From Dehalococcoidia bacterium (GTDB taxonomy: Bacteria > Chloroflexota > Dehalococcoidia > Lucifugimonadales > UBA1123): a DNA stretch of 64,000 nucleotides. Positions 6,358-40,939 of the stretch are shown here, piece by piece. The position numbers were made by a program, and so were the translations under genes. The notes under the pieces are model-generated. The model had not been told where the DNA came from, did not search any database, and saw only the letters and a program-made list of their open reading frames with translations. The stretch is taken from contig CBDESW010000004.1 of the NCBI GenBank assembly GCA_965242675.1, forward strand, positions 301,862-365,861, read 5' to 3'. The number at the start of each line of letters is the position of its first letter. Position 1 is the stretch's first letter.

Positions 6358-6389
6358 CGCGGGGGGCGGACGGTCGAGGAGATGACGCT

Positions 6390-7427: not shown

Positions 7428-7465
7428 CCCCCTGCTGAACACTCCCGCAAACTGGAGACGCCATT

Positions 7466-8566: not shown

Positions 8567-8592
8567 CCCGCCCGCGAACCGGAGACGCCATT

Positions 8593-9819: not shown

Positions 9820-9845
9820 CCCGCCCCCACACAGGAGACGCCGTT

Positions 9846-10946: not shown

Positions 10947-10973
10947 CCCGCCCGCGAACCGGAGAACGCCATT

Positions 10974-13036: not shown

Positions 13037-13110
13037 GGCGATGCTCCTGATTTTCCGATTTCTGAAGGGCGGCTTGCATGCATCTTAGCGCAAAACGCGG
13101 CGCGGCGCTT

Positions 13111-13292: not shown

Positions 13293-13303
13293 AACGCGCG
13301 CGC

Positions 13304-14638
13304 CTACAAACCGCCGCCGTCCCCATCCCCGCCGTGATGCCGCGCCACGTGGCGGTAAGTCGCCGACACCAGATAGCCGCCCAGCGCCGTCGCTATGTAC
13401 GCGATGACCGCCGTCGCCATCAGCGCCAAGCCGAGGCGGTAGCGCTCCAGCGTTTCCTCCGGCGGGTAGCCTATCCGCGCGTAATCGACCTCCCACTCCA
13501 TAAACAGGTTGTGGTCGGGGAACGCCAGCGGGCTGGGGGACAGATAGGCGACTATCCCGCCCGCCGAGCCGACTAGGCACAGCGCCGCGATGACGGCGAC
13601 CGCCGCGATTAGGCTCATCTTCGCCTCCCACTCCGAGAGCGTCACGGCGTCGTCTTGGAAGGCGAGAATGGCGGTGAACGCGCCGAAAGTCACGCCCAGC
13701 GCGACCAGGTGGAAGAACCAGCCGCCTTCGTTGACGAACACCAGCATGTTGCCGAAGACGAACAGGCAGGGCGGCAGCGCCGTCCACATCGCGCGGGCGA
13801 AGGCGGAGCGAGGGCCATTGACCGAATACATCCTGATGCGCAGCGCGTCGAAGGCGAGCGACGCCGCCAGCGCCAGCGCGAGATGGGCGAAGAACGTCAG
13901 CAGAAGAAAAGTCCACTCGCCGCCCCAAGGGACGAGCGCGAAGAAGCCGAAATGATCCATCCGCGTGATGGAGAACATGAGCAACGAGGCGTTCAGCACG
14001 AAGAACAGCGATATGAAGAACAGCTCGCTGGTGGCGTCCGCGCGCCGCCAGCGCAGGACGCCCTGCCCGCCGACTATGGCGAGCGCCGCCGCCGAGTACG
14101 ACGCCTGAACCACGGCGCCGTCCAGCCCCATCGCATTGAGTCCGTAAGCCACCGCGCTGGCGTAGATTCCCGGCCCGGCGGCTCGGCGGAACGTCTCTTT
14201 GGCGAGCGTCCCCGCGTCCATCGCCGCGCGCCGCTCCGCCCTTGTGGGCGAATCCGCCGCCGTCGCGGTTTCGGACTGCGGACGCGCCCTTTGCGCTTGG
14301 GCATAGACTCCGTGCGCCAGCGCCAGCAACTCGGCGGCTTCCGTGTCCGGCTCCGGCGGCGCGTAGCCGGCGAGCGCCATCAGCGCGTCCGTCTCCGGGC
14401 GCGACAGGCGGAGCGCCCCCGCGAAATCCGCCAGAAACCCGCGCGGCGGACGGCGCTCGCCATTCTCCCAACGCCGCAGCGAGGATTCGTCGAGATTGGC
14501 GTAAAGCGGGTCGCCGTCCTTTGACAGCGCCTCAAGCAACGCGCCCCGCGACATGTTGCCGCCGAAGCCGCGCCGATAGAGCGCCAGCAACCCGCCGAGC
14601 CGCTTGAGGTCGGCTTTGTCGCCGTTAGGAATTGTCAT
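13304..14638 (-). CDS. XRE-type HTH domain fused to a polytopic membrane domain, paralogue A
   Basis: Start set at the ATG at 14638 (MTIPNGDKADLKRLGG) by analogy with paralogue B. N-terminal HTH-like region LGGLLALYRRGFGGNMSRGALLEAL...SSLRRWENGERRPPRGFLADFAGALRLSRPETDALMALAGY, followed by about 8 TM segments. Confidence 0.7.
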   Translation of the reverse strand: MTIPNGDKADLKRLGGLLALYRRGFGGNMSRGALLEALSKDGDPLYANLDESSLRRWENGERRPPRGFLADFAGALRLSRPETDALMALAGYAPPEPDTEAAELLALAHGVYAQAQRARPQSETATAADSPTRAERRAAMDAGTLAKETFRRAAGPGIYASAVAYGLNAMGLDGAVVQASYSAAALAIVGGQGVLRWRRADATSELFFISLFFVLNASLLMFSITRMDHFGFFALVPWGGEWTFLLLTFFAHLALALAASLAFDALRIRMYSVNGPRSAFARAMWTALPPCLFVFGNMLVFVNEGGWFFHLVALGVTFGAFTAILAFQDDAVTLSEWEAKMSLIAAVAVIAALCLVGSAGGIVAYLSPSPLAFPDHNLFMEWEVDYARIGYPPEETLERYRLGLALMATAVIAYIATALGGYLVSATYRHVARHHGGDGDGGGL

Positions 14639-14778
14639 AGCCCCGCGCCCCCGCGCATATCGCATCGCCCGAACGCGCGCCGCGCCCGCCGAAGACATGG
14701 GCGCGACGGCGCATTGTTGCCACTATACACGCGAAGGCGGGCGCCCGCAATCGCGCCGCGCCCGTTTTCGCGGTTGAA

Positions 14779-16116
14779 TCAGCCCTCGCTTTCGCCGCTC
14801 GCGCCGCGATGGGCGGCGGCTTGCCGCCGTATCGAGACCACCAGATAGCCGCCCAGCGCAGTCGCCAAATACGCGATTGCGGAGACCGCCATCCACAAAA
14901 ACCCCAGCCGCGCCCGCTCTATCCACTCGCTTTGCGGGTAGCCCAGCCGCTCCCAATTTATCTCCCAAGACCAGAGCAGATTGTGGTCGGGAATGGCTAT
15001 CGGGCTGGGGTCTATGTAGGTGACCAGCGTTCCCGCCGCGCCGACCGCGCACAGCAGGATGATGACGGCGACCGCCGCGACCAGCGCCATTTTCGCCTCC
15101 CAATCCGACAGCGCAACGCGGCGGTCGCCGAACGCGAGGATGGCGGTGAACGCGCCGAATATGACGCCGAGCGTTATCAGAAAGAATATCCACGCGCCGA
15201 CATTGGCGAAAAGCAGAATGTTGGCATAGACGAACAGGCACGGCGGCAGAGTCGTCCACGCGGCGCGGGCGAAGGCTCCGCCCGCGCCATCGCGCCCGTA
15301 CCGCCGGCTCCGCAACGCCCCGAAGGCGACGGACGCCGCCAAAGCGAGCGCCAGATTCGCCATGAGCGCCATGAGCAGGGGAATCGACGTGTCCGCCCAG
15401 TCCCAAAGCGCGAAGAATCCGTATGTGTCCAAGCCCGTGACCGCGGTTTGGAGCAGCGGCGCGCCAAGCGCGAAGAATACGGACACGAAGAACAGCTCGC
15501 CCGCGTCGTCCGCGCGCCGCCGCCTCAAGACGCCCTGCCCGACGACTATGGCGAGCGCGACGGCGACGTACGCCATGAGCGCCCACGTCCCGTTCTGCCC
15601 CAGCGCGTTCAGAACCCAGCCGACGGCGGCGGCGTAGATTCCGGGCGGAGCCGCCCTGCGGAGCGCGTCTTTGGCGAGCGCGGCGGCGTCCATTGGCGGC
15701 TCCGCCGCCGCCGAATCCACCAGAAACCGAACGCCGCGCCTGATGTCGTCTGTCTTTCGGTCTATGCCGTCCGTCTTTGCCGCTATGCCGCGGACGCCGC
15801 TCAGGGTCTCGGCGCGCTCGGCGGCGGCGGACTCGGCGTAGCCCGCCAGATTCATCAGCGCGTCCAACTCCGCGCGGGACAGGCGAAGCGACTGCGCGAA
15901 GTCCGCCAGAAAATCACGCGGCGGACGCCGAGCGCCGTTCTCCCATCGGCTGATCGCCGAGCGGTCGAGCGCGGCGTACTCGGCTTTCCGCTCCGCCATC
16001 AGCGCGAGCAGGCCGTTCTGCGACAGCCCGCGCCCGCCGCCGAAATCCGTCCGATAAAACCTGAGCAAGCCGCCGAGCCGCTCAAGGTCGCCGCCGTTCC
16101 CCGCTGAATTCGTCAT
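14779..16116 (-). CDS. XRE-type HTH domain fused to a polytopic membrane domain, paralogue B
   Basis: ATG at 16116 (MTNSAGNGGDLERLGG). The architecture and many conserved stretches match paralogue A (RWENGARRPPRDFLADFAQSLRLSRAELDALMNLAGY; C-terminal PDHNLLWSWEINWERLGYP). Confidence 0.7.
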   Translation of the reverse strand: MTNSAGNGGDLERLGGLLRFYRTDFGGGRGLSQNGLLALMAERKAEYAALDRSAISRWENGARRPPRDFLADFAQSLRLSRAELDALMNLAGYAESAAAERAETLSGVRGIAAKTDGIDRKTDDIRRGVRFLVDSAAAEPPMDAAALAKDALRRAAPPGIYAAAVGWVLNALGQNGTWALMAYVAVALAIVVGQGVLRRRRADDAGELFFVSVFFALGAPLLQTAVTGLDTYGFFALWDWADTSIPLLMALMANLALALAASVAFGALRSRRYGRDGAGGAFARAAWTTLPPCLFVYANILLFANVGAWIFFLITLGVIFGAFTAILAFGDRRVALSDWEAKMALVAAVAVIILLCAVGAAGTLVTYIDPSPIAIPDHNLLWSWEINWERLGYPQSEWIERARLGFLWMAVSAIAYLATALGGYLVVSIRRQAAAHRGASGESEG

Positions 16117-16284
16117 ATTCGGATGCCTTTGCACATGCCAAACCGAAAGAGCGCCGCGCTTGTCACAGACGCGGGCGGCGTTTTCCGATACCCATGAAGG
16201 CGCAGACGCGACCTCCCATATCGTAACCGAAGCGCCGCGCCGCCGGCATAGGGGCTGCTCACAAAATTCATAGTCGCAAAACCC

Positions 16285-16764
16285 ATGACAAACCATTTCA
16301 AGACGGTAAAAATCCACCCTAGCGAGCAGCCCAGCCGGCGCCGGACGGCGAAACCGCTGAATTGGGGCGGCGGCGGACGCCGTTCGCTCGGCGCAGGAAC
16401 GGTTTTTGGCGTGGAAACTTCAAACGACCCCAAGCGCGACGAGGAAATCAGGGAAGCGATTGGCATGATCCAGTCGGGGCTGGAAATCCTGTTGAAACGC
16501 CTCGGCGAAGGCGGCGCCCCCATTCCGCTCGCGGCTCTGATCGAAAGCAGGGCGGAGCGGTTCGGAGGACGCCTCACCGACGCCGAACTGGAAGTCCTGA
16601 CGCGCTACGCGGAGGGCGAAACCGTCGCCAGCATAGCCGAATCCCGCCGCATCTCCAAGCGAACGGTCCATAACCAGCTCGGCGCGGCGACCCGCAAACT
16701 CGGCTTCGCCGACAGACGCGAACTGACCGGCTACATAAAAGGCGCCGGCGAATGGCGGCTGTGA
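16285..16764 (+). CDS. Small LuxR/GerE-type HTH transcription regulator
   Basis: C-terminal LTDAELEVLTRYAEGETVASIAESRRISKRTVHNQLGAATRKLGF is a LuxR-type HTH. The start is uncertain. The ATG at 16465, preceded by GGGAAG, would give a 99-aa protein. Confidence 0.6.
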   Translation: MTNHFKTVKIHPSEQPSRRRTAKPLNWGGGGRRSLGAGTVFGVETSNDPKRDEEIREAIGMIQSGLEILLKRLGEGGAPIPLAALIESRAERFGGRLTDAELEVLTRYAEGETVASIAESRRISKRTVHNQLGAATRKLGFADRRELTGYIKGAGEWRL

Positions 16765-16834
16765 GGCGGGCGGCGCCGAACGGCGAAAGCGGCTCGCGCA
16801 AATCGCAAATCATAATCATAAAAGGAGAAGCAAA

Positions 16835-16996
16835 ATGCCTGACATAGCGGCGATCTCATCCCTAGTAGTCTCTGTGGGCGTCCTCGTGGTGTCCGTGGGG
16901 GTGTTCTACCTCGTCACCAAACTCGGCAGCGCGATAGAGCGCCTCGCCGACAACGGCGGCAGGCGGGACGACCGCGACCGGGACGACCGACAGTAG
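16835..16996 (+). CDS. 53-aa single-TM microprotein (below the ORF-track cutoff)
   Basis: AAAGGAGAAG SD ends 5 nt before the ATG at 16835 (core GGAG 7 nt before). Translation: MPDIAAISSLVVSVGVLVVSVGVFYLVTKLGSAIERLADNGGRRDDRDRDDRQ, one hydrophobic helix plus a charged R/D tail. It lies between the LuxR gene and the PD40-chimera gene on the same strand. Confidence 0.45.
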   Translation: MPDIAAISSLVVSVGVLVVSVGVFYLVTKLGSAIERLADNGGRRDDRDRDDRQ

Positions 16997-17085
16997 AACC
17001 CGCCCCAACGCGGCGGCGAACGGCGGGGCGCTCCGGGCGCGCGAGCGTCCGGGACGCCCCGTCCATCAAAGAGGAATGACGCCAA

Positions 17086-19032
17086 TTGAGCGGAATCATA
17101 TCCGGCGAAATCCGTCTCGCGGCGCTGGCGATTGCGCTCGCGCTGGCGGCGGCGGTCGCCTGCGGCGGCGCGCCCGTCGGACGGGAAGCCTTCAGGCACG
17201 ACTTCAACGGCGAGATATACGTCTTCGTGGAGTACGAGGACGAACTCGCCGTATTCGCCGAATCAGGACGCCCCGTATCCTCGAAACGGAACGCGGACGC
17301 CGCGCTGCGCTCATACGTCTGGACGCGGGCGTTCGACGACGCGGACATGTCCGGACTGGCGCAAGCCGCCGACAATGTGGGCGAACTGGATTCGGACATC
17401 GCCAACGCCAGAAGCGCATCCAACGCCGTCGTAGAGGTTTTGGACGAGCTGGACGGCATCGGCGCGTCCATTCCCCTGATGGGGCGCGTGTCCGCCATGG
17501 ACTTGGTCGAATCGGCGTATCCGGGCGTGGACGCCCTGGGCGGCGCGATGCGCGGTCTGGATTCAAGGCTGAACGACTGGGGCGCGGATTCCGAAAACCT
17601 GTCGAACGCGGCGGCGAGCCTGCAGTCGCTGTCCCATTCCCAGCATCTGGACGCGGACGCGGTCGAGAGCGCCTTCAAGAGCGCGGATTCGGCGGCGCGC
17701 GGGCTCGCGGACGCGATTGGCGAGATGGAATCCGCGCTCGACAACGCGATGGACAACGTCTCGCGCCTGGAGCGCGCGTTGCGGAGCGCGTCCGATACGC
17801 CAGTCATCGGCGGCGGACTCGAATCGCTGGCGGACGAAATAGGCGGATCGGCGGGCGGCGCGCTGTCCGACCTCGCCGCGAACCTGAGCGACCTGAAGGG
17901 AGACCTGAACTCCGTCTCAAGGAACTTCGGGCGGGGAACGTCGCAAGCCGAGAGGCGGCACAGAGGCTACGCCGCCAGGTGGACGGGAGACCCGCCGGAC
18001 GCCAGATGGCCTCCGTCCAACCGCGCGAGAAGAAGCCCGCCGCGTCCGGACCCGACGCCCCGCCCGCTCGCCGGCGGGGAATCGACCTCCGCGCCCGATG
18101 GCGTTGCGCCGTCCGCGACCGCCCCGGTGAGAAGAAGCCCGCCGCGTCCGGAGCCGACGCCCCCCGCGCTCGCCGGCGGGGAATCGGCCTCCGCGTCCGC
18201 CGGCTCCGCGCCGTCCGCGCCCGACGCCCAAGCGCCGGCTCCGCTGTCCGCAACGGACAGCCGCCGCGAAGGGCGAATCGCGTTCAACTCCGGGAACCCA
18301 TCCGAGATATACACGATAAACGCCGACGGATCCGGCTTGACGCGCCTCACCGACAACTCCGCCGGCGACTGGCTCCCCGATTGGTCTCCCGACGGACGCA
18401 AGATAGCGTTCGCGTCCAACCGAGACGGCGGCAACGAGATATACGCGATGAACGCCGACGGATCCGGCGTCGCGCGCCTCACCAACACGTCCGGCGGCGG
18501 GTCGGGGTCGCCTTCTTGGTCTCCCGACGGGCGCAAGATAGCGTTCGTATCCGACCGCAACGGGAGCAGCGAGATATACGTGATGGACGCCGACGGCTCC
18601 AACATCGCGCGCGTCACCAACAACTCCATAAATGAGGGCAAACCGTCTTGGTCGCGGGATGGCCGCCGCCTAACCTTCGACGCCTACCCGCAGGGGCTAA
18701 TCTACGCGGCGGACGCCGACGGCTCCAACTTTGAGTCCATAAGGTCGGGCTGGAATCCTGCGTTCTCGCCCGCTAACAACTCGCTCATAGCGTTCGGCGT
18801 CGGCGGACTCGGCGGGATACACGTGACGAACGCCGACGGCTCCAACGTCGCGCGGCTAACCTCGCATGGCGGCGGGGCGGCGTGGTCGCCCGACGGACGG
18901 AGCGTATCGTTCACATCCCGGCGAGACGGCAATGAAAACATCTGCGTGGCGGACGCGGACGGCTCCAACGCCGCATGCCTAACCAGCCACTCCGCCAAGG
19001 ATGAATATCCGTCTTGGGGGCCGGCCCCCTGA
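17086..19032 (+). CDS. Chimeric lipoprotein: Asp/Ser/Ala-rich helical N-domain + Pro-rich repeat linker + PD40 beta-propeller
   Basis: TTG start after AGAGGA. Lipobox AAVAC. About 280 aa of helical low-complexity sequence (ADNVGELDSDIANARSASNAVVEVLDELDG...). A duplicated RRSPPRP(D/E)PTP..LAGGES unit. Then PD40 blades (EIYTINADGSGLTRLTDNSAGDWLPDWSPDGRKIAFASNRDGGNEIY). Ends in SWGPAP. Confidence 0.8.
   Translation: MSGIISGEIRLAALAIALALAAAVACGGAPVGREAFRHDFNGEIYVFVEYEDELAVFAESGRPVSSKRNADAALRSYVWTRAFDDADMSGLAQAADNVGELDSDIANARSASNAVVEVLDELDGIGASIPLMGRVSAMDLVESAYPGVDALGGAMRGLDSRLNDWGADSENLSNAAASLQSLSHSQHLDADAVESAFKSADSAARGLADAIGEMESALDNAMDNVSRLERALRSASDTPVIGGGLESLADEIGGSAGGALSDLAANLSDLKGDLNSVSRNFGRGTSQAERRHRGYAARWTGDPPDARWPPSNRARRSPPRPDPTPRPLAGGESTSAPDGVAPSATAPVRRSPPRPEPTPPALAGGESASASAGSAPSAPDAQAPAPLSATDSRREGRIAFNSGNPSEIYTINADGSGLTRLTDNSAGDWLPDWSPDGRKIAFASNRDGGNEIYAMNADGSGVARLTNTSGGGSGSPSWSPDGRKIAFVSDRNGSSEIYVMDADGSNIARVTNNSINEGKPSWSRDGRRLTFDAYPQGLIYAADADGSNFESIRSGWNPAFSPANNSLIAFGVGGLGGIHVTNADGSNVARLTSHGGGAAWSPDGRSVSFTSRRDGNENICVADADGSNAACLTSHSAKDEYPSWGPAP
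18027..18195 (+). repeat. 102-nt tandem duplication inside the Pro-rich linker
   Basis: GAGAAGAAGCCCGCCGCGTCCGGA(C/G)CCGACGCCCC...CTCGCCGGCGGGGAATCG(A/G)CCTCCGCG occurs at 18027 and again at 18129, a period of 102 nt (34 aa). Confidence 0.85.
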
Positions 19033-19143
19033 TTGGGGACTGACTAACCGGCGTCCGCCGAAAGCGGGCGCTCGCAAGCATCTTGGGCGTCTTCGCCTCA
19101 TCCGCGACGGCGCCGCCTAAACTAGGGAGGACGCGGGAGAAAA

Positions 19144-21852
19144 ATGTTCAAAGACAGAGCGTTGATTCTGGGTTTGGCGGTCGCCGCGCTCGGCGTCGTC
19201 TTCAGCGTGTCCGTGTACCTGCTCGCCTCCATCTTCCTGTCGGTAAGGCAGGAAGTTCGGCTGGCGGGCTTGGACGTGTCTCCGCGCAGCATCTTGTTCG
19301 CGAACATTGGGGACTCAGACTCCCTGTCCGCTCGCGGCTACTACTCCGACCGCTCCTTCGGCGAGTGGGAGGACGAAGTTTCCTACACATCGACAAACCC
19401 GTCTGTCGCGTCCGTGAACGCGCGCGGAGTCGTCACCGCCCAGGCGACGGGCGCGGCGGACATCGTGGCGAGCCACGGCGGCTTCAGCGTCGACATTCCC
19501 GTCATCGTGTACGGCGAAGTCAGGGTGGCGCCGCCGGTCGACCCCGCCATGGTCGGCGTCGTCCCCGCGATAGACCCGGAAATCCCCGTCGTGCGAAACC
19601 GCGTCATGGTGGAGCTGATACCCGGCTACGGCTTGCCGGACGCGCAGGCGCTGGCGGCGACCATCGGCGGCGGCGTGGCGTTTTCATACCGGACGTTTCC
19701 CGGACACATCATCGAATTCGACCCGTTCACCCTGGATTTGGAGACGGCGCTGACCGCGATGGAGTCCAACCCGATTGTGGAAGCCGCGTACCCGGACATC
19801 GTAATGGAGATTAGCGACCACCCCACGGATACGTTCATAAACAACCCTGCAGGCTCATCAAGCAGTCTGCCATATGAAGAAGCGGGTTTCGATAGGGCTT
19901 GGCAGATGATGGAGCGGATTGACGACCTCGCTCCCGTCAACATAGCCGTGATTGACGACGGCTTTTACGTCCCGCCGTTGCCCGCGTCCATCCGGCGCGA
20001 GTTCGACCCAAGCAGAATCATCGTGATTCCCCAAAAACAGCAGCAAACGACCGACCCGGATTTCCTATTCCACGGAACCGCGGTGTCATCCGTGATGGTC
20101 GCGGTCAACAACGAAGCGGAAGGCGATGGTCCTTCCGACCTTAGCGGCGTTGTCTCTAGCGTTCCCGGACTAGAGCACAACCTCCATGTATTCGCCACTG
20201 GCACAGGCGGCGGCGGAATAGCGCGCTCTGCCTCGACCGCGGCTTTGGAAACAATCGAGTTGATGCAGGACAGCGTTGACGCGGTGAATATGAGTTATGA
20301 ACGCAGGTTGTCCTCCGACTTCATTGAGAGATGGAAATTCTATCTTAGGGATAGGCGAGACGACCTTGCGGAGGACATGCCCATGGTGACGTTTGTAGCG
20401 GCGGCGGGCAACTGCGAATGGGACGCTTCGACGACAGAGCCGGCGAGATGGTCGCTCAACCTTCCGAACGCCATCACCGTCGGCGGCACTGACAACGGTC
20501 ACGCCGAACGTTGGGATACGAACTACATGCCGTCAAATTGCGGAACTCATTTCGCAGGTTCCGCGTTTGGCCCCCCAATCAGCGTAGCGGCGCCGGCGGA
20601 GGGAGTGTTGGTGTTAAGCGCCGGGGCGTCCAGCCGTCAACAACCAAGCGCCGGGGACGCCTATCAATCTAACGGCACATCCTTCGCCGCGCCGATGGTG
20701 ACCGGAACCGCCGCGTTGCTTCGCGCCATTTCGCCCGACATTTCGCCTAGCGAGATACGCCGAATCCTGCGCGACTCGGCGGATATGAAATGGATATGCG
20801 CGTCCAACAACCCCATAAGCGCATGCCCGCCCTCGGATCAGGAAGAGTGGCCGTTCCTGCGGGCGGATAGGGCGGTTGACATGCTGCTGTCGCGGCTCGT
20901 GGACGCCGAGATAGACCCGCCGCCGCCGCTCGTGCGAGCGTCGACGACCGGATACGCGGAAATCGAGGCGACTGTCCGCAACGCCGGAACAAGAACTTGG
21001 CCCTTCCATGTCGAGGCGTGGGCGCGGTCTCCCGCCGGCGATGAATTCTCGCTCGGCGCGGTCGAACCGGCGATTGCGCCCGGGGAATCCCACCCGGTCA
21101 GATGGGCGTTCGCGTTTCGCGACCCCGGCGTATGGGACCTGAGCATACTCGTCAGCAGGGACGACACCCGCGACACGCCGCTTGCGCTGTCGGACTGGGG
21201 GGAAGCGCGGATAGAAGTTCCGCCGTCCGCCGTAGGCGCGACGCCCGCCGCGCAACCCAGCGCGCCCGCCGCGCCGCCGCCGTCCACTCCGGGAGGCGCG
21301 ACGCAGCAAGACGCCAACGTGATTTTGCTGGCGGACACCAGCGGCAGCATGGAAGGTCCCAAAATCCAGGCGTTGCGGGAGTCCGTCGCGCAGTTCATCG
21401 CGAGGGTGGACGACCCCGGCGAGTTCGTGGGGCTTGTGGACTTCGACAGCGGCTTCAGCGAAGCCGTGCCGCTCGCCCCGCTGGGCGACGACCTCAGCGC
21501 CTGGGAATACGCCGTCGCCACGCTGGACGGCGAAGGCGGCACGGCGTTTTACGACGCCGTCATAAGCGCCGCGTCGGTTCTGGAATCGCGCGGCGCGCCC
21601 GGACGGGTCAACATAATGATAGCCCTGACCGACGGCATGGACCAAGACAGCGCCGCGTCCCTAGACGACGCGATACGGGCGCTCGAGCGGTCGTCCGTCC
21701 CCATACTCATGTACGCCGTCGCCTACGGGGAGCCGGGCGATTACGACCTGGACGCGCTGGAGCGCCTCGCGGAAGCGACGGGCGGCGCGGCGTACACCGC
21801 CGACCCGGTGAACCTGGATCGGCTGTACACCCTGCTGACCACACTGTTCTAA
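19144..21852 (+). CDS. Membrane-anchored multidomain S8 subtilisin-like protease with Big_2-like, propeptide-like and CARDB-like segments and a C-terminal vWA domain
   Basis: N-terminal TM anchor. Big_2-like STNPSVASVNARGVVTAQATGAADIVA. S8 triad contexts IAVIDDGF (Asp), FHGTAVSSVM (His), NGTSFAAPMVTGTAALL (Ser). C-terminal vWA with MIDAS DTSGS (nt 21334-21348) and ...ALTDGMDQDS. Confidence 0.85.
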   Translation: MFKDRALILGLAVAALGVVFSVSVYLLASIFLSVRQEVRLAGLDVSPRSILFANIGDSDSLSARGYYSDRSFGEWEDEVSYTSTNPSVASVNARGVVTAQATGAADIVASHGGFSVDIPVIVYGEVRVAPPVDPAMVGVVPAIDPEIPVVRNRVMVELIPGYGLPDAQALAATIGGGVAFSYRTFPGHIIEFDPFTLDLETALTAMESNPIVEAAYPDIVMEISDHPTDTFINNPAGSSSSLPYEEAGFDRAWQMMERIDDLAPVNIAVIDDGFYVPPLPASIRREFDPSRIIVIPQKQQQTTDPDFLFHGTAVSSVMVAVNNEAEGDGPSDLSGVVSSVPGLEHNLHVFATGTGGGGIARSASTAALETIELMQDSVDAVNMSYERRLSSDFIERWKFYLRDRRDDLAEDMPMVTFVAAAGNCEWDASTTEPARWSLNLPNAITVGGTDNGHAERWDTNYMPSNCGTHFAGSAFGPPISVAAPAEGVLVLSAGASSRQQPSAGDAYQSNGTSFAAPMVTGTAALLRAISPDISPSEIRRILRDSADMKWICASNNPISACPPSDQEEWPFLRADRAVDMLLSRLVDAEIDPPPPLVRASTTGYAEIEATVRNAGTRTWPFHVEAWARSPAGDEFSLGAVEPAIAPGESHPVRWAFAFRDPGVWDLSILVSRDDTRDTPLALSDWGEARIEVPPSAVGATPAAQPSAPAAPPPSTPGGATQQDANVILLADTSGSMEGPKIQALRESVAQFIARVDDPGEFVGLVDFDSGFSEAVPLAPLGDDLSAWEYAVATLDGEGGTAFYDAVISAASVLESRGAPGRVNIMIALTDGMDQDSAASLDDAIRALERSSVPILMYAVAYGEPGDYDLDALERLAEATGGAAYTADPVNLDRLYTLLTTLF

Positions 21853-21924
21853 AGCCGGCGCCCGCAACGGCGCGAACCCAGACGCGGACGGCGGCGAATC
21901 GGACCAACCGAAAGGAGCGATGAA

Positions 21925-22917
21925 ATGAGAGAGAAGATAGAAGCCCTGCCAATCGGAAGGCGCTCGCTTAACGCGGCGGTCATCGCCGTCGCTCTGCTGG
22001 CGTTGCTTGGCGCGACCGCCCTGCTGTTCGGGGCGTGTCGGGGGGACCAGTCGGCGAGGACGACCATCAGCGCCGGCTGGGAGCATACCTGCGCGTTGCG
22101 GGAAGACGGCTCCGCGCGATGCTGGGGCGCCGATGACGTCGGTCAGTCGTCGCCGCCCAGAAACGATGTATTCACAACCATCAGCGCCGGCGGCCCGCAC
22201 GCCTGCGGGTTGCTGGAAGACGGCTCGGCGCGATGCTGGGGAGCGGAATCCAGCGACAGCGACTACGGCCAAGCGTCCCCGCCCAGAAACGAGACGTTCA
22301 AAGCCATCAGCGCCGGCAACGTTCACACCTGCGCGTTGCGGGAAGACGGCTCGGCGCGGTGCTGGGGAGCGGAATCCAACGACGGCGACGTTGGCCAGGC
22401 GTCCCCGCCCAGAAACGAGACGTTCAAAGCCATCAGCGCCGGCAGTTTGCACACCTGCGCGCTGCGGGAAGACGGCGCGGCGCTGTGCTGGGGAGTGGAG
22501 GACGACGATTTCGACTACGGCCAGGCGTCCCCGCCTAGAAATGAGACGTTCAAAGCCATCAGCGCCGGCGGGGCTCACACTTGCGGATTGCGGGAAGACG
22601 GCACGGCGCGATGCTGGGGCGCGGAGTCCAACCGAGTCGACTACGGCCAAGCGTCCCCGCCCAGAGATGAGACGTTCACAGCCATAAGCGCCGGCAGTTA
22701 TCACACCTGCGGGTTGCGGGCGGACCGCACGGCGCTGTGCTGGGGAAGAAATAATGACGAGCAAGCGTCCCCGCCCAGAAATGACGAGTTCATAGCCATC
22801 ACCGCCGGCGTCGAGCATACCTGCGCGCTGCGTTCGGACGGCACGGCGCGATGCTGGGGCGGCGACCGTTACGGTCAGGCGTCCCCGCGCAGAATCGACA
22901 CATTCGCCCTGCCCTGA
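21925..22917 (+). CDS. RCC1-repeat beta-propeller protein (about 6-7 blades), secreted or lipoprotein
   Basis: AAAGGAG SD 7 nt upstream. Signal peptide ending FGAC. Repeats of ISAGxxHTC(A/G)LREDGSARCWGAExxxxDYGQASPPRNETFKA. Confidence 0.85.
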   Translation: MREKIEALPIGRRSLNAAVIAVALLALLGATALLFGACRGDQSARTTISAGWEHTCALREDGSARCWGADDVGQSSPPRNDVFTTISAGGPHACGLLEDGSARCWGAESSDSDYGQASPPRNETFKAISAGNVHTCALREDGSARCWGAESNDGDVGQASPPRNETFKAISAGSLHTCALREDGAALCWGVEDDDFDYGQASPPRNETFKAISAGGAHTCGLREDGTARCWGAESNRVDYGQASPPRDETFTAISAGSYHTCGLRADRTALCWGRNNDEQASPPRNDEFIAITAGVEHTCALRSDGTARCWGGDRYGQASPRRIDTFALP

Positions 22918-22991
22918 TTCGGTCGCGCTCAGCCAACAGACCATCCGCGCGAGCGTTCAACAAGCCAACATGAGAGAGAGAGAGCCGCAAA

Positions 22992-25835
22992 ATGAAGTTC
23001 GGAGCGTCAACCCTAGCCCTAGCCATCATCATCCTCGCGTCGGCGCTTGCCTCGGCGTGCGGCGACCAGCGCCCGCCGCGCCCGCCCCGCCCGCCGCGCA
23101 TAGCGGTGGTCGACGCGCCGACGGCGACTCCCGCCCCCGAATCCGCGCGCTCGGCTCCAGCCGAAAGACCGCCCGCGCAAGCGCAAGCGTCGCCCGCATC
23201 CACGCAGACGCCTGCAATCCCGGCTACTCCCGCGCCGGAAATCCCGCCTGCGCCCGCGCCGCCCAAACTGACGCTCCAACCGACAAAGCAAACCATCAGC
23301 GCCGGCGGCGACGGGACCTGCGCGTTGCGCGATAATGGAACGGCGGTGTGCTGGGGGGATGCTTCGTCCCCCATTGGCGAGACTTTCACAACCATCAGCG
23401 CCGGCGATGATTCTAGTTATTCTGAAATCTGCGCGTTGCGCGCGGACGGCACAGCGTGGTGTGACGACTTGTCCCCGCCTATAGGCGAGACGTTCACAAC
23501 CGTCAGCGTCGGATATGACTACGCTTGCGCGTTGCGGGAAGACGGCTCGGCGGTATGCTGGGGAAGTGATAAAGCAGGGCGGTTGTCCCCGCCCGACGGC
23601 GAGACATTCGCGGCAATCAGCGCCGGCAATTCTCATACCTGCGCGTTGCGAGCGGACGGAACGGCGGTATGCTGGGGCGCGGAAGGCGACGAGTACGACA
23701 TTGGTCAGGCGTCCCCGCCCAGCGGCGAGACATTCGCCGCCATCAGCGCCGGCTACCGCCACACCTGCGCGTTGCGAGCGGACGGAACGGCGGTATGCTG
23801 GGGCGCGGAATCCAATCGAGTCGACTTCCGAGTCGACTACGGCCAAGCGTCCCCGCCCGACGGCGAGACATTCGTAGCCATCGGCGCCGGAGAACAACAC
23901 ACCTGCGCGTTGCGCGCGGACGGTTCAGCAAGATGCTGGGGGGATGGAAGAGGAGGTGTAACGTCCCCGCCCAGAGACGAGACCTTCGTTGCCATTGGCG
24001 TCGGCGGTCATCACACCTGCGCGTTGCGCGCGGATGGCGCGGCGGTATGCTGGGGGGATAGCCAATACGGTCGAACGGCCTCGCCCAGAGGCGAGACATT
24101 CGCGACGTCGTCGGCGAAAATTAAAATCGCGCCAGTCGAGCCGCCCGCGCCGGTCAATCTGACGGTCCATCCAACATCTAAAACCATCAGCTCCGGCAGC
24201 CGGCATACCTGCGGTTTGCGCGAGGATGGCGAGGCGATATGCTGGGGGGATAACGAAGATGATCAGTCGTCCCCGCCCAGCGGTGAGACATTCACATCCA
24301 TCAGCGCCGGCGTTCGGCACACCTGCGCGTTGCGCACGGACGGAACGGCGATATGCTGGGGGGATAACGAAGCCGGTCAGTCGTCCCCGCCGAGCGGCGA
24401 GACATTCGTTGCCATCAGCGCCGGCGATTGGCATACCTGCGGGTTGCGCGCGGACGGAACGGCGATATGCTGGGGGTGGAATGGTGAAGGTCAGGCGTCC
24501 CCTCCGAGCGGCGAGACATTCGCGGCGATCAGCGCCGGCGATTGGCACACCTGCGCGTTGCGCGCGGACGGAACGGCGATATGCTGGGGGAACAACTATC
24601 TCGGCCAGGCGTCACCGCCGAGCGGCGAGACATTCACAACCATCAGCGCCGGCGATTGGCACACCTGCGCGTTGCGCGCGGACGGAACGGCGATATGCTG
24701 GGGGAACAACGAAGACGGTGAGGCGTCCCCTCCGAGCGGCGAGACATTCGCGGCCATCAGCGCCGGCGATAAACACACCTGCGCGTTTAGAAAAGACGGC
24801 TCGGCGGTATGCTGGGGGGACAACGAAGACGGTCAGTCGTCCCCGCCCGACGGAGAGACGTTCGTAGCCATCAGCGCAGGCTCCGGGCATACCTGCGCGT
24901 TGCGCCTGGACGGCGTGGCGAGATGCTGGGGCCAGAACTATATTAGTCAGGCGTCCCTATCAAGCGGCGTGAAGATTGCGTCAGCAACGCCGTCCGAGCC
25001 GGTCAATTTGACGGTCCAACCGACAGTTAAAACCATCAGCGCCGGCGCTTGGCATACCTGCGGGTTGCGCGCGGACGGAACGGCGATATGCTGGGGGTGG
25101 AATGGTGAAGGTCAGGCGTCCCCGCCCAGCGGCGAGACTTTCGCAACCATCAGCGCCGGCTCTTACCACACCTGCGGGTTGCGCGCGGACGGAACGGCGG
25201 TATGCTGGGGAGGGGAAGGCGACGATAACATTGGTCAGTTGTCCTTGTCCCCGCCGAGCGGCGAGACATTCGCGGCCATCAGCGCCGGATTTGGGCATAC
25301 TTGCGGGTTGCGCGCGGACGGCGCGGCGATATGCTGGGGGTGGAACGAAGACGGTCAGTCGTCCCCTCCGAGCGGCGAGACTTTCGCGACTATCAGCGCT
25401 GGCTATCGGCATACCTGCGCGTTGCGCGCGGATGGAACGGCGCGATGCTGGGGGAGTGGCCAGACGTCCCCGCTGAGCGGCGAGACATTCATAGCCATCA
25501 GCGCTGAATTTGGGCATACCTGCGGGTTGCGCGCGGACGGAACGGCGCGATGCTGGTGGAGAGGCCAGTCGTCCCCGCTGAGCGGCGAGACATTCATAGC
25601 CATCAGCGCCGGATTTGGGCATACCTGCGCGTTGCGCCCGGACGGAACGGCGCGATGCTGGGGAGCGGAAGGCGGCGATTCTGATTATGGCCAGTCGTCC
25701 CCGCCGAGCGGCGAGACATTCGTAGCCATCAGCGCCGGATTTGGGCATACCTGCGCGTTGCGAGCGAACGGAACTGCGACATGCTGGGGGCGTAACGGAT
25801 CCCCGCCCGACGGCGTGACGTTCGCTCTGCCCTGA
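22992..25835 (+). CDS. Large RCC1-repeat protein (three propeller-sized blocks), lipoprotein
   Basis: Lipobox LASAC and a Pro/Ala linker. About 17 RCC1 repeats (ISAGDWHTCALRADGTAICWGxNxxGQ(A/S)SPPSGETF) fall in three blocks separated by KIAPVEPPAPVNLTVHPTSKTIS-type and KIASATPSEPVNLTVQPTVKTIS-type linkers. Confidence 0.85.
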   Translation: MKFGASTLALAIIILASALASACGDQRPPRPPRPPRIAVVDAPTATPAPESARSAPAERPPAQAQASPASTQTPAIPATPAPEIPPAPAPPKLTLQPTKQTISAGGDGTCALRDNGTAVCWGDASSPIGETFTTISAGDDSSYSEICALRADGTAWCDDLSPPIGETFTTVSVGYDYACALREDGSAVCWGSDKAGRLSPPDGETFAAISAGNSHTCALRADGTAVCWGAEGDEYDIGQASPPSGETFAAISAGYRHTCALRADGTAVCWGAESNRVDFRVDYGQASPPDGETFVAIGAGEQHTCALRADGSARCWGDGRGGVTSPPRDETFVAIGVGGHHTCALRADGAAVCWGDSQYGRTASPRGETFATSSAKIKIAPVEPPAPVNLTVHPTSKTISSGSRHTCGLREDGEAICWGDNEDDQSSPPSGETFTSISAGVRHTCALRTDGTAICWGDNEAGQSSPPSGETFVAISAGDWHTCGLRADGTAICWGWNGEGQASPPSGETFAAISAGDWHTCALRADGTAICWGNNYLGQASPPSGETFTTISAGDWHTCALRADGTAICWGNNEDGEASPPSGETFAAISAGDKHTCAFRKDGSAVCWGDNEDGQSSPPDGETFVAISAGSGHTCALRLDGVARCWGQNYISQASLSSGVKIASATPSEPVNLTVQPTVKTISAGAWHTCGLRADGTAICWGWNGEGQASPPSGETFATISAGSYHTCGLRADGTAVCWGGEGDDNIGQLSLSPPSGETFAAISAGFGHTCGLRADGAAICWGWNEDGQSSPPSGETFATISAGYRHTCALRADGTARCWGSGQTSPLSGETFIAISAEFGHTCGLRADGTARCWWRGQSSPLSGETFIAISAGFGHTCALRPDGTARCWGAEGGDSDYGQSSPPSGETFVAISAGFGHTCALRANGTATCWGRNGSPPDGVTFALP

Positions 25836-25907
25836 TTATCGGTCGCGTCCAGCCAACAATCCGTCAAGCGCGTTAGCCAAGCCAGCATGAGCGAGAAGAG
25901 CCGCAAA

Positions 25908-26939
25908 ATGAAGTTCGGAGCGTCAACCCTAGCCATAGCCATCATCATACTCGCGTCGGCGCTGGTTGCGGCATGCGCCGACCAGCCCGCGCCGCGACCG
26001 CCGCGACCGCCGCGCATAACGGTGGTCGAGCCGCCGACGGCGACTCCCGCGACCGAATCCGCGCGTTCGGCTCCAGCCGAAAAGCCGCCCGCGCAAGCGC
26101 CGGCTAAACTGACGCTCCAACCAACAAAGCAAGCCATCAGCGCCGGGTGGGAACACACCTGCGCGTTGCGCGAGGATGGAACGGCGACATGCTGGGGGGA
26201 TAACGAGGACGGTCAGTCGTCCCCGCCCAGCGGCGAGACGTTTGTAGCCATCAGCGCCGGCGGCGACCACACCTGCGCGTTGCGTGCAGACGGCGCGGCG
26301 ATATGCTGGGGGGATAACGGGGACGGTCAGTCGTCCCCGCCCAGCGGCGAGACGTTCGTTGCCATCAGCGCTGGCGCTTGGCATACCTGCGCTCTGCGCG
26401 CGGACGGCGCGGCGATATGCTGGGGGTGGAATGAATACAGTCAGTCGTCCCCGCCCAGTGGCGAGACGTTCGTTGCCATCAGTGCCCGCTGGTATCACAC
26501 CTGCGCGTTGCGCGAAGACGGCGCGGCGATATGCTGGGGGTGGAATGATGAAGGTCAGTCGTCCCCGCCCAGCGGCGAGACGTTCGTAGCCATCAGCACC
26601 GGCGACCACCACACTTGCGGGTTGCGCGCAGACGGCGAAGCGGTATGCTGGGGGCGTAACGATTACGGTCCGGCGTCCCCGCCGAGCGACGAGACGTTCG
26701 CCGCCATCAGCGCCGGCAACGCGCACACCTGCGCGTTGCGCGAGAACGGAACGGCGATATGCTGGGGAAACGACTCTTACGGCCAGTCGTCCCCGCTGAG
26801 CGACGATACGTTCGTAGCCATCAGCACCGGCGGCCACCACACTTGCGGGTTGCGCGCAGACGGCGAAGCGGTATGCTGGGGGCGTAACGACTACCGCCAG
26901 GCGTCCCCGCCCGGCGGCGTGACGTTCGCTCTGCCCTGA
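25908..26939 (+). CDS. RCC1-repeat beta-propeller lipoprotein
   Basis: Start set at the ATG at 25908 (MKFGASTLAIAIIILASALVAAC), which is homologous to the start of the 22992 gene. Seven RCC1 repeats. Ends in VTFALP like its paralogues. Confidence 0.85.
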   Translation: MKFGASTLAIAIIILASALVAACADQPAPRPPRPPRITVVEPPTATPATESARSAPAEKPPAQAPAKLTLQPTKQAISAGWEHTCALREDGTATCWGDNEDGQSSPPSGETFVAISAGGDHTCALRADGAAICWGDNGDGQSSPPSGETFVAISAGAWHTCALRADGAAICWGWNEYSQSSPPSGETFVAISARWYHTCALREDGAAICWGWNDEGQSSPPSGETFVAISTGDHHTCGLRADGEAVCWGRNDYGPASPPSDETFAAISAGNAHTCALRENGTAICWGNDSYGQSSPLSDDTFVAISTGGHHTCGLRADGEAVCWGRNDYRQASPPGGVTFALP

Positions 26940-27022
26940 TTCGGGCGCGTTCGACAAGCCAGCGTGAGAAAGCCGCCGAATGACATGAGCGGCGAATCGG
27001 CTCAACCGAAAGGAGCGATGAA

Positions 27023-27436
27023 ATGAGAATAACAATGAGGTTCTTTGGACTGGCGCTCAAGGCGCTGGTCTTCACCTTCTTGCTCTACATAGTGTGGGGC
27101 GCGGTCATTGGGGTCGGCGTCGCGATGATAGTGGTCGCCCTCCCCGGCGTATCCGTCCTGGCGCTGATAGGCGCGCTGATCGCGATTTTCGGAGCGGCGA
27201 TGGCGTTGCTGTCTTTGTCCGCCGTCCTAATCAAAATCTCCGTTGAGGAGGCGACGCATCAGACGACGAGACAGGCGGAGCGGCGTATGGACGCGGAGAT
27301 GTGGCGCGTCCGGCAGTCGTCAAGGCGGGCGTCGAGGCCGAACAGCCGCGCCGAGAGGCCCATAAGCGAAAGGCCCGGACCGCTTTCGGAAGCGGCGCGC
27401 CGCCGCCGAGACGCCAACCGGTCCGACCGAAACTGA
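27023..27436 (+). CDS. Small membrane protein, one copy of a 2-TM + basic-tail module
   Basis: FFGLALKALVFTFLLYIVWGAVIGVG... has two hydrophobic helices, then a basic tail containing GPLSEA. The SD and first codons are identical to those of the 21925 gene. Confidence 0.55.
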   Translation: MRITMRFFGLALKALVFTFLLYIVWGAVIGVGVAMIVVALPGVSVLALIGALIAIFGAAMALLSLSAVLIKISVEEATHQTTRQAERRMDAEMWRVRQSSRRASRPNSRAERPISERPGPLSEAARRRRDANRSDRN

Positions 27437-27460
27437 AACTGATGGGAAAGGAACGCTGAA

Positions 27461-28711
27461 ATGACACTGCGGGAAGCGTATGGGGCGGCGCTTAAGGCGG
27501 CGCTCGGCATCATCGGATTCTACATAGTGTTCGGCATCGTCACATTGCTCGGCGTTGTCATGTCGCTCGGCTCGTTCTTGGCTGGCGGGGCGGGCGCGTT
27601 GGCGAGCGCGTCGCTCGACTCATTCTGGGCCGGCGGGGCGGGCGCGTTGGCGGGCGCGGCGCTCGCGCTCTTTGGGATAATCGCGGCGTGGCTCTCCGCG
27701 TTCGCCGTCATAATCAAAACCTCGTTCGACGAGGCGATGCGCCGCTCGCGGCGGCGGATTGACGACAGGGCGCTGAGCATTGCGAACCAGATTGAAGGGC
27801 GAAGCGCAAGCCGCGGACCGCTTTCGGAAGCGGACAGCGTCAGAATGAGCTGGCGAGGGGCGTTCGGCACCGCGCTTAAGGCGGTGTTCTTCATCATCAT
27901 ATCCTATATCGCCTTCGGCTTCTTGACTGGAGTCGGGGCGGCGCTCACAATAGGCGGAGCCGTGCTCTTCGTCGCAGGCGACGTTGGGGTCGTTGTTGGG
28001 GCATTTGCGATGATTGTAGGTGCGCCGCTTGCGGTCTGCGCAGCTGTCGCGTGGATTCTCTCCCCGTTCGCCAACCTAATCGCAATCCCAGTCAGGGAGA
28101 CGGTGAAACGGTCGGAGTCGCGGATAGCCGCCGCCGTGAGATTCATAACGGACAGCGTCGACGAACGGTCGGCGGAGCCGAGCCATGCGCGGGAAGCGGA
28201 ACGCGAATCGCCTCGGCAGGGGGGACAAAGCGCTTCTCCCAAAAGGGCGGCGCCGGCGCGGCATGCGCGAGAAGCCAATGTGAATCGCGGCGGCGCGCGC
28301 GGCGATGTGTTCCTCTCAAAAGAGGGAGTCACGGTTACGCGAACCCGGTTCGAATCGCGGGGCGCCGCCTACGGGATGAGCGCCGTGTCCTCGTGCAGAG
28401 TCCTGTACCTCAACGAAAACCAGAGCGGAGGCAAGAAAGCCCTGCGGGCGCTCTCCATGATGGCTAGCCTAGCGGGAAGCGTCGCCGTAGGGTTCATGCT
28501 GGAACAGCCGATCATCGGCGCGGTCATCGGAATAACGCTCGCGGTCGCGTTCTCCCTCATAAAAATACCGCAGTACCGCTTGTACGAGCTTTACTTGTAC
28601 GCCAACTCAGGGGAAGAATTGCGCGCCTTGACTTCGCGCGACGGGGATTTCATCCGCGAAGTCGAGCGCGCCGTCAACGACGCGATTGCGGCGAGGGGCA
28701 ACGCCGAATAG
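27461..28711 (+). CDS. Membrane protein with two copies of the same 2-TM module plus a distinct C-terminal membrane-associated domain
   Basis: Module starts REAYGAALKAALGIIGFYIVFG and RGAFGTALKAVFFIIISYIAFG, with GPLSEA after the first. The C-terminus (VFLSKEGVTVTRTRFESRGAAYGMSAVSSCRV...2 TM...YELYLYANSGEELRALTSRD) loosely resembles bPH or DUF6232-type domains. That similarity is from memory and weak. Confidence 0.55.
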   Translation: MTLREAYGAALKAALGIIGFYIVFGIVTLLGVVMSLGSFLAGGAGALASASLDSFWAGGAGALAGAALALFGIIAAWLSAFAVIIKTSFDEAMRRSRRRIDDRALSIANQIEGRSASRGPLSEADSVRMSWRGAFGTALKAVFFIIISYIAFGFLTGVGAALTIGGAVLFVAGDVGVVVGAFAMIVGAPLAVCAAVAWILSPFANLIAIPVRETVKRSESRIAAAVRFITDSVDERSAEPSHAREAERESPRQGGQSASPKRAAPARHAREANVNRGGARGDVFLSKEGVTVTRTRFESRGAAYGMSAVSSCRVLYLNENQSGGKKALRALSMMASLAGSVAVGFMLEQPIIGAVIGITLAVAFSLIKIPQYRLYELYLYANSGEELRALTSRDGDFIREVERAVNDAIAARGNAE

Positions 28712-28774
28712 CGGAAGCGCCGCCGCCGAATCGTCCCGCTTCCCAATCCCGAATCGTGCGACGGGGCGGCGCGC

Positions 28775-30037: not shown

Positions 30038-30438
30038 GCGGCGGGCGTCCTCCGCTCTGTCGCTGGGTTCGCCGGCGATTTTAGCGCAAATCCCTCTCTA
30101 GCGGCGTCCAACCGAAACAAGCGCCGAGCGCAACCAACGCATCCCTTCCCCATACTCTATCCAGTCATTCCCGCGAACGCGCCGGAGGCTGACCATGCGC
30201 TCCCCGTCCGAATGTTGCCGGATCGAACGCGAGCTGCGACAGCGCATGCCGCAGCTCGCAAAGGCGCAGACGCGGGGGCGCGCCCAACGGACCTACGGAA
30301 CCATAGCCGCCTGCAACGGACGCCTGACCGCCGCCGCCAACAACCCCCCATTGCGCCATCGCGTTAAAAAACTCCCTCTCAAACCCTCCGCGTTTTCTCT
30401 GCGCCCCCGCGCCTCCGCGTCAAAAATCGCGCAGCCAA

Positions 30439-40892: not shown

Positions 40893-40939
40893 ATAAAAAG
40901 CAACCAATAACTAGCCACTGGACACCACCCCCAAACGCC

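Follow-up and report, generated by a model that had tools for sequence, protein, structure and literature searches.

A candidate modular surface-protease locus around a conserved microprotein and S8-vWA pair in Dehalococcoidia

Introduction

Besides their peptidase S8 domain, the cell-envelope subtilases of monoderm bacteria (lactocepin PrtP, ScpA, Vpr, Tk-SP) have a prodomain at the N-terminus and additional beta-sandwich domains, and they are displayed at the cell surface. In the Treponema dentilisin system (prcB-prcA-prtP), a short operon encodes lipoprotein partners that stand in complex with an S8 protease. Here we analyze a 64-kb stretch of DNA (hereafter the window; G+C about 65%) from the Dehalococcoidia bacterium assembly GCA_965242675.1 (contig CBDESW010000004.1, positions 301,862 to 365,861). 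It carries nine plus-strand open reading frames (ORFs) at 16285-28711, among them a subtilase fused to a von Willebrand factor A domain (S8-vWA), a 53-residue membrane microprotein and several beta-propeller lipoproteins. Of the systems described so far, this locus would work most like the cell-envelope subtilases and the dentilisin protease-lipoprotein complex, dentilisin being the nearest functional analogy.

The comparison has clear limits in each case. The cell-envelope subtilases are anchored through LPXTG motifs and sortase, whereas the window protease has a signal-anchor helix upstream of its putative prodomain. The window protease alone has a C-terminal vWA domain with a metal-ion-dependent adhesion site (MIDAS), in place of which its paralogues have propellers, leucine-rich repeats (LRR) or ankyrin repeats, and it alone has a conserved microprotein; the sequence similarity is limited to the S8 core. 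With dentilisin it shares a surface S8 protease with co-encoded lipoproteins, but the NCBIfam model denti_PrtP gives it 30.8 bits against a cutoff of 300, its partners are RCC1 and PD40 propellers and the microprotein, unrelated to PrcA and PrcB, and the window host is of monoderm type. Like tricorn, DPP-IV and prolyl oligopeptidase, S8-PD40 paralogues of the window protease join a serine peptidase to PD40/Tricorn_N-type propellers; the catalytic fold is however S9 or S41 in those enzymes and S8 here, and the window propellers are separate lipoproteins. The likeness to CLCA and other vWA/MIDAS proteins (integrin I domains, ANTXR2, ITIH) is the extracellular fusion of a protease with a MIDAS vWA domain. 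CLCA is a secreted, self-cleaving metalloprotease with a vWA domain, and its MIDAS vWA binds a partner via an acidic residue. The window vWA matches the hCaCC model weakly, the similarity is confined to that domain, and a zinc metalloprotease contrasts with the serine S8 protease of a bacterial host.

The MoxR-vWA and Bat (BatA-BatD) systems and the type VII secretion mycosins offer a membrane-associated vWA domain or a membrane-anchored S8 domain, respectively. The window protease scores 59.3 bits with the mycosin model TIGR03921 (cutoff 278.75) and its anchor is N-terminal, and no MoxR ATPase, Bat or Ecc genes occur among the scanned neighbours in the window flanks. Nor does it look like a sortase-anchored vWA adhesin or pilus tip: it ends in ...LYTLLTTLF, with no LPXTG motif or C-terminal transmembrane (TM) helix, and no sortase was found among the scanned window neighbours. 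As for anti-phage defence, PADLOC gave weak generic matches only (subtilase 1e-7, 2TM effector 3e-3). An earlier annotation of the window made without database searches (the sequence-only reading) could not name the system, and we agree, since neither NCBIfam nor PADLOC provided a system-level assignment for the cluster.

We propose that this is a modular chromosomal surface locus for targeted proteolysis or binding, with a conserved two-gene core (microprotein and S8-vWA) and accessories that come and go; we regard the case for it as evenly balanced. The accessories appear to be free RCC1/PD40 lipoproteins, 2-TM/DUF6232 proteins and an XRE-type helix-turn-helix (HTH) regulator with six TM helices (XRE-HTH/6-TM), which by comparison with related loci seem to have accumulated in the window by recent rearrangements.

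The conserved two-gene core

ORF listing and translation reproduced the nine-gene run as the sequence-only reading had laid it out, with successive gaps of 70, 89, 111, 72, 74, 51, 83 and 24 nucleotides (nt), and all of its domain calls were backed by Pfam. The S8-vWA gene (19144..21852, plus strand) encodes a protein of 902 amino acids (aa), recognized by Pfam, structural model and Foldseek as a type-II membrane-anchored pro-subtilase. Its Pfam matches are Big_2, Peptidase_S8 (E 4e-24; 85.8 bits, cutoff 21.8) and VWA (E 5e-12; 46.7 bits, cutoff 23.8). Both functional sites are intact. The catalytic residues D271, H310, N423 and S513 expected of a subtilase (PF00082) are all present; across 13 S8-vWA homologues the His, Asn and Ser are invariant, whereas the Asp gives way to Glu in the two most distant homologues alone. 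The MIDAS motif (DTSGS...GGT...TDG) is complete, with D731-T-S733-G-S735, T800 and D830 invariant in the alignment. The two distant homologues (P0017 and P0018, with IVEPG and MVEGG around the Glu) keep His, Asn, Ser and the whole MIDAS, and could be altered or inactive proteases that retain the binding domain.

An AlphaFold2 (AF2) model of the protease, built from a 13-sequence alignment, lays out a TM helix (residues 2-31), Big_2 (40-122), a beta-alpha-beta-beta-alpha-beta unit (152-217) provisionally taken as the prodomain, the S8 domain (about 250-585), an immunoglobulin (Ig)-like sandwich (596-692), a disordered linker and the vWA domain (724-901). The best Foldseek matches of the catalytic part were Vpr, ProN-Tk-SP, pro-subtilisin E, PCSK9, furin and ScpA, and those of the vWA domain ITIH4 and ANTXR2. 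By prediction of hydrophobic segments, the N-terminal signal-anchor helix is the only membrane anchor. An exact-sequence look-up found no record of the window protease, nor of its homologue P0005.

Relatives of this protein are few and confined to one lineage. We found 19 matches among 5.8e9 clustered proteins, and an exhaustive HMMER scan of 1.84e9 representatives (50% identity) gave 121 matches below 1e-30, about a dozen of them with the full S8-vWA architecture. Among the GTDB species genomes, full-length relatives came from five loci only, all in Dehalococcoidia metagenome-assembled genomes. A scan of metagenome contigs with the S8-vWA alignment added no loci and returned generic vWA matches only, because the back-translated patterns were vWA motifs. 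The neighbourhoods compared below are those of eleven other S8-vWA loci (L001, L002, L004-L009, L044, L088 and L089); L001/L004 and L088/L089 are near-duplicate pairs, which leaves about nine independent contexts.

The microprotein gene (16835..16996, plus strand) encodes 53 aa with one TM helix. Its homologues lie directly upstream of S8-vWA in nine other loci (L001, L002, L004, L005, L006, L007, L008, L044 and L088/L089), and in L088/L089 the pair stands alone amid metabolic genes. Far from being a minor component, the microprotein is the most conserved partner of S8-vWA and better conserved than the protease itself (54-94% identity across loci, against 38-72%). Pfam, NCBIfam and PADLOC provided no family assignment; in the protein database the family makes up 94 clusters, and every cluster with a named source is from Chloroflexi or Dehalococcoidia. 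The members follow the pattern MPD...VSVGVFYLVxKLGxAIE, with a positively charged stretch after the TM helix, and by the positive-inside rule the N-terminus faces outward. Position 3 is acidic in all full-length members examined, the exception being the 41-aa P0109. In L172, a solo homologue of the microprotein lies among giant LRR, cadherin, PKD and fn3 proteins (950-6964 and 12094-16147).

Propeller neighbours and swapped protease tails

RCC1 or PD40 genes stand beside the S8-vWA core in seven of the eleven other loci (six of ten if L001/L004 and L088/L089 are each counted once). RCC1 genes directly follow S8-vWA in L005, L007 and L008, and PD40 genes immediately precede the microprotein/S8-vWA pair in L002 and S8-vWA in L009. 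In L001 and L004 a giant S8-PD40 gene is found three genes upstream, with two 2-TM genes alone between it and the microprotein gene. The association of S8-vWA with RCC1 propellers, PD40 propellers and 2-TM proteins, which had been offered for checking, therefore recurs in other Dehalococcoidia genomes. What is conserved is the microprotein/S8-vWA core with recurrent accessories, and not the nine-gene set as a whole. The giant genes of L001 (1-8197) and L004 (1-8165) encode proteins of about 3,300 aa with BACON, a second S8 domain and many PD40/tricorn-type propellers, and L044 has an arylsulfotransferase-type beta-propeller gene (12859-13980) convergent to S8-vWA.

A second line of evidence comes from paralogous proteases. 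In proteins P0011-15 the first ~700 residues match the window protease at 53-55% identity, after which PD40 propellers take the place of vWA. The same N-terminal ~700 residues are joined to RCC1 propellers in P0128 and P0129, to PD40 in P0131, to LRR in P0134, to ankyrin in P0146 and to a PQQ/BamB-type propeller in P0153. The protease is part of a lineage-restricted clade with one chassis (TM, Big_2, prodomain, S8, Ig-like) and an interchangeable C-terminal protein-binding domain. The free RCC1 proteins of the window show 42-44% identity to the RCC1 tails of P0128/P0129. The window's free propeller types are thus the covalent tails of sister proteases, and this domain-fusion evidence argues that the adjacency is functional.

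The alternative is a coincidental juxtaposition, in which fast-duplicating propeller gene families landed by an unrelated protease without functional coupling. We consider it unlikely. It would account for a separate five-gene PD40 array 5 kb upstream of the cluster, for an RCC1 block that has the marks of a recent insertion with internal duplications (see below), and for those S8-vWA genes that have no propeller neighbours. Against it, in the seven loci with propeller genes (38-72% protease identity) every RCC1 or PD40 gene lies in the same-strand run of S8-vWA, tblastn finding no match elsewhere in these ~20-kb loci, and the same RCC1 and PD40 types are fused to paralogous proteases, which is Rosetta-stone evidence of functional linkage.

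Several observations weigh against the modular surface locus itself. Propeller genes are absent beside S8-vWA in L006, L044 and L088, and the protease therefore does not need them. In L009, S8-vWA has no microprotein, and in L090, L171 and L172 a divergent microprotein homologue occurs on its own, two of the three beside insertion sequence elements. Propeller lipoprotein genes abound in these genomes, and some of the adjacency could therefore be background. Finally, the prodomain assignment is provisional because the confidence of the AF2 model is only moderate (mean predicted local distance difference test, pLDDT, of 64).

A recently reshuffled gene run

The sequence-only reading held that the nine genes had been evolving as a unit. 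The rival explanation that follows from it is one co-evolving operon encoding a fixed vWA/protease/propeller surface assembly under the LuxR-type protein encoded by the first gene. In its favour, the genes share one strand and short gaps, most of them are preceded by Shine-Dalgarno sequences, and seven of the eight gaps fold no better than shuffled sequence. The comparison with L002, the closest relative (72-91% aa identity), points elsewhere: of the nine genes, those for the PD40 chimera, the microprotein and S8-vWA are the only three it has between the same flanking genes, while the RCC1 genes, the two membrane genes and LuxR are missing. The LuxR homologue is specific to the window, the N-terminal domain of the PD40 chimera is found in the window and L002 only among the compared loci, and the LuxR gene has no ribosome-binding site. 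With these findings, together with the leader repeat and the hairpin described below, we regard a fixed operon as very improbable.

DNA alignment of L002 with the window gives the order of the rearrangement. The PD40 gene of L002 (1601-3495) is equivalent to window 17126-19058, the microprotein gene with its hairpin (3674-3908) to 16821-17061, the protease gene (3899-6736) to 19066-21890, and the next gene (6829-8145) to 28806-30124. On this alignment, the microprotein gene and hairpin have been transposed together from just upstream of the protease gene to the front of the PD40 gene. Window positions 21891-28805 (6.9 kb), comprising the three RCC1 and both membrane genes, are missing from L002, with the break at 21890/21891.

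The left edge of this 6.9-kb segment is exactly the first copy of a 40-nt leader. The sequence-only reading had noticed that the leader and start codon of the first RCC1 gene are reused in front of the first membrane gene, and we confirm the repeat: there are exactly two copies with 2 mismatches, where 0 are expected by chance. It had taken the repeat as a sign of evolution as a unit, and here the evidence points the other way. Copy 1 (21891..21930, plus strand; Shine-Dalgarno plus ATGAGA) precedes the first RCC1 gene, and copy 2 (26989..27028, plus strand) the 2-TM gene. The motif, ACCGAAAGGAGC[GA]ATGAA[AG]TG, is conserved in front of the orthologous 2-TM genes of L001 and L004 as well, which marks it as the 2-TM gene's own leader, of which the first RCC1 gene acquired a copy. 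Since the two copies bracket the RCC1 block and one lies at the insertion edge, the repeat reads as the footprint of a cassette insertion rather than as a record of unit evolution. Altogether, the nine-gene run is a recently reshuffled mosaic around the conserved microprotein and S8-vWA pair.

The run had also been described as lacking obvious terminators. No canonical intrinsic terminator occurs in any of the eight gaps, but the gap after the microprotein gene (16997-17085; dG -49 kcal/mol) contains a long GC-rich hairpin (17022..17063, plus strand) that separates this gene from the remainder. Its stability exceeds chance (z = -2.9; 0/200 shuffles as stable). A strong hairpin lies 3' of the microprotein gene in 8/8 relatives examined (e.g., L001 9876-10000, L005 9832-10000, L008 9841-10000 and L044 9797-10000), with differing sequences, and in L005 it is followed by the T-tail ATTATTTT, resembling an intrinsic terminator. 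The conservation of position without conservation of sequence suggests that it is functional, a candidate attenuator, terminator or stabiliser.

Candidate regulators

The LuxR-type gene (16285..16764, plus strand) had been proposed as the dedicated regulator of the cluster. It encodes 159 aa with a GerE HTH (Pfam E 4e-10, residues 97-148) and nothing else that Pfam or NCBIfam recognizes: there is no receiver or ligand/autoinducer-binding domain, and the N-terminal 90 residues match no domain, so that it has only the GerE part of a LuxR-type quorum-sensing or two-component regulator. It has no homologue in the eleven related loci, and no Shine-Dalgarno sequence lies upstream of the gene.

The recurrent candidate regulator is instead the divergently transcribed XRE-HTH/6-TM protein, present in two copies in the window and in three other loci (L002, L006 and L007). 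The first copy (13304..14698, minus strand) encodes 464 aa with HTH_31 and six hydrophobic segments, predicted as TM helices; its paralogue (14779..16317, minus strand) matches HTH_31/HTH_3. By comparison with the 464-aa protein, the true start of the paralogue is probably a Met at ~16116 (MTNSAGNGG), in which case it would not overlap the LuxR gene. The L002 orthologue is 82% identical and in the same position, and the homologues in L006 and L007 are divergent from the microprotein gene. We consider this protein a likely candidate for the local regulator or sensor.

Export and proposed mode of action

A location at the cell surface is supported by predicted export signals. The sequence-only reading had counted six exported proteins in the run, and our tally is five: lipobox-like motifs (a lipobox has the form [LVI][ASTVI][GAS]C) in the PD40 chimera and the three RCC1 proteins, and the signal-anchor helix of S8-vWA. 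The genes present, their intact domains and export signals, the recurring neighbourhoods, the swapped tails and the rearrangements are seen directly in the sequences; whether the products form a complex, what they act on, how they are regulated and whether they serve to acquire peptides or to adhere to or interact with a host is inferred. The protease would act on macromolecular targets on the outer side of the cytoplasmic membrane, and these would be captured by its C-terminal binding domain and by the co-encoded propeller lipoproteins on long Pro-rich stalks. As its only anchor is N-terminal to the putative prodomain, autoprocessing there would detach the S8-Ig-vWA part, and the processed enzyme might be retained at the surface via the vWA MIDAS or by small membrane partners (microprotein, 2-TM proteins, DUF6232).

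An alternative role for the lipoproteins is that of substrates, the subtilase being a sheddase or maturase that cuts their Pro-rich stalks and so frees the propellers from the membrane. In each propeller protein an extended linker rich in Pro, Ala and Thr comes after the predicted lipobox, and similar linkers join the three propellers of the 947-aa RCC1 protein; dedicated S8 maturases are also known elsewhere, such as the lantibiotic leader peptidases and the mycosins. However, the linkers showed no conserved cleavage motif, the protease is often found without propeller genes, and the fusion of propellers to the protease C-terminus fits targeting better than a substrate role. We therefore hold the processing explanation to be highly unlikely.

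The locus might also be nutritional, an extracellular protein-degradation unit supplying oligopeptide ABC importers. The S8-PD40 paralogues in L086 and L087 adjoin complete Opp operons, the window itself has two sets of Opp-type peptide ABC transporter genes (38244-48614, plus strand) at 10-20 kb beyond the downstream end of the cluster, and PD40/tricorn-type propellers gate substrates in known peptidases, namely tricorn and DPP-IV. The window sets comprise SBP_bac_5 genes (38244-40169 and 43015-45309), permeases (40940-41893, 45440-46429 and 46430-47575) and an ATPase (47568-48614), all on the plus strand. However, the Opp genes are convergent or distant, outside the same transcription unit, and ankyrin, LRR and vWA tails suggest specific protein targets over bulk proteolysis. 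A nutritional role is thus, in our judgement, a minority possibility.

The targeted surface locus can be extended to a general scheme for Dehalococcoidia, which we consider doubtful: modular targeted surface proteolysis with a constant chassis, swapped tails, tail-specific small membrane tethers and propeller adaptors. The microprotein would serve the vWA form and DUF6232 the PD40 form, a stand-alone DUF6232 gene lying directly upstream of the S8-PD40 paralogues in L086 and L087. The acidic residue at position 3 of the microprotein could complete the metal site of the vWA MIDAS, tethering the processed enzyme; integrin ligands complete the MIDAS metal site likewise. The free propeller lipoproteins would be exchangeable adaptors. 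The eukaryote-like tails offer a hint that host or foreign proteins are the targets, and the genomes of the relatives look well stocked with eukaryote-like surface repeat proteins, a possible sign that their hosts live in association with another organism.

If the reading as a modular surface locus is right, it defines an uncharacterised, lineage-restricted surface protease family whose specificity appears to be set by a swapped C-terminal domain and recruited propeller lipoproteins. Such modularity is familiar from polymorphic toxins and eukaryotic proprotein convertases, and less so from bacterial subtilases. It would also provide a concrete partner and a testable role for a highly conserved membrane protein of ~50 residues, and a genomic handle on the purpose of the large RCC1/PD40 lipoprotein expansions in uncultured marine Dehalococcoidia. 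The practical impact is limited until a family member is studied experimentally.

Propeller lipoproteins

The PD40 chimera (17086..19032, plus strand; 648 aa; PD40 E 9e-35) has the lipobox AVAC at residue 26, then a domain in which a small beta-sheet is joined to a long helical bundle; a Pro-rich linker of 34 aa, present twice, leads on to the PD40 beta-propeller. In the AF2 model, residues 25-300 (pLDDT 81) form a three-stranded sheet and five long helices. Sequence and fold searches of the PDB with this N-terminal domain gave no significant match (E<1e-3 for the fold search), and it looks like a generic long helical bundle. The linker is encoded by a 102-nt unit present twice in-frame (18014-18217; 84% identity).

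All three RCC1 proteins have the RCC1_2 repeats of a seven-bladed RCC1-like propeller. The first gene (21925..22917, plus strand; RCC1_2 E 7e-68) encodes a single propeller with 7 repeats and the lipobox FGAC. The second (22992..25835, plus strand; E 1e-178; lipobox ASAC) encodes 947 aa with a Pro-rich stalk and three propellers; its 19 matched stretches are read as 3 x 7 blades of ~38 aa. The third (25887..26939, plus strand) encodes a propeller lipoprotein of 350 aa with 7 matched RCC1_2 stretches, and probably starts at 25908, not 25887. It shares with the 947-aa gene a 204-nt repeat, 90% identical to 22981-23184, and blades 82-85% identical in DNA, and is a recent partial duplicate of it.

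The leader of the 947-aa gene contains a (GA)6 tract at 22972-22984. An upstream ATG (22970) lies 22 nt before the main ATG, out of frame; in the 350-aa paralogue the upstream ATG (25887) lies 21 nt before the main ATG, in frame, so that a one-base repeat slip separates the two genes. The GA tract could be a phase-variable site. The three RCC1 proteins also share a C-terminal "FALP". We discarded the idea that it is a sorting signal, since the RCC1 relatives in L005, L007 and L008 lack it and it forms the first strand of the propeller-closing blade.

Upstream of the cluster, five PD40 lipoprotein genes form a tandem array (6390..12152, plus strand) encoding proteins of 345-408 aa (PD40 E 1e-52 to 1e-61 each), two of them with Pro/Thr-rich stalks. 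Like the propeller proteins of the cluster, all five have a lipobox-like motif after a hydrophobic N-terminus and are predicted lipoproteins. The window PD40 proteins match DPPIV_N and TolB-type propellers. The array is parted from the cluster by an 8-TM gene (12149-13036, minus strand), to which no family was assigned, and by the two XRE-HTH/6-TM genes; it probably belongs to the same surface-protein neighbourhood.

Membrane proteins with the 2-TM module

The last two genes of the run share a 2-TM module, as the sequence-only reading had recognized. The first (27023..27436, plus strand) encodes a protein of 137 aa with one predicted module and a basic cytoplasmic tail, and its orthologues lie beside the microprotein and S8-vWA genes in L001 and L004 (E 1e-25 to 1e-26). 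The second (27461..28711, plus strand) encodes 416 aa with two modules and a C-terminal DUF6232 (Pfam E 5e-12). In the loop of its first module, a 48-nt unit is present twice in-frame (27562-27657; 90% identity). A profile search with the module returned two proteins only, the word index being probably poor on hydrophobic sequence, and a weak match of the 2-TM protein to the Chlamydia Inc-protein CT214 was put down to hydrophobic composition.

The wider window

The window is chromosomal, with genes for ClpX, FtsZ, a ClpB-like protein, ferritin, a rhomboid protein and the Opp transporters. It has no 23S rRNA, 16S rRNA or tRNA genes; a lone 5S rRNA gene (56119-56235, plus strand; 86 bits) lies downstream of the minus-strand FtsZ gene (54539-55654). 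Also beside FtsZ, and unrelated to the cluster, lies a minus-strand gene (53243-54478) whose 411-aa product has a CoiA-like N-terminus together with an HNH endonuclease domain.

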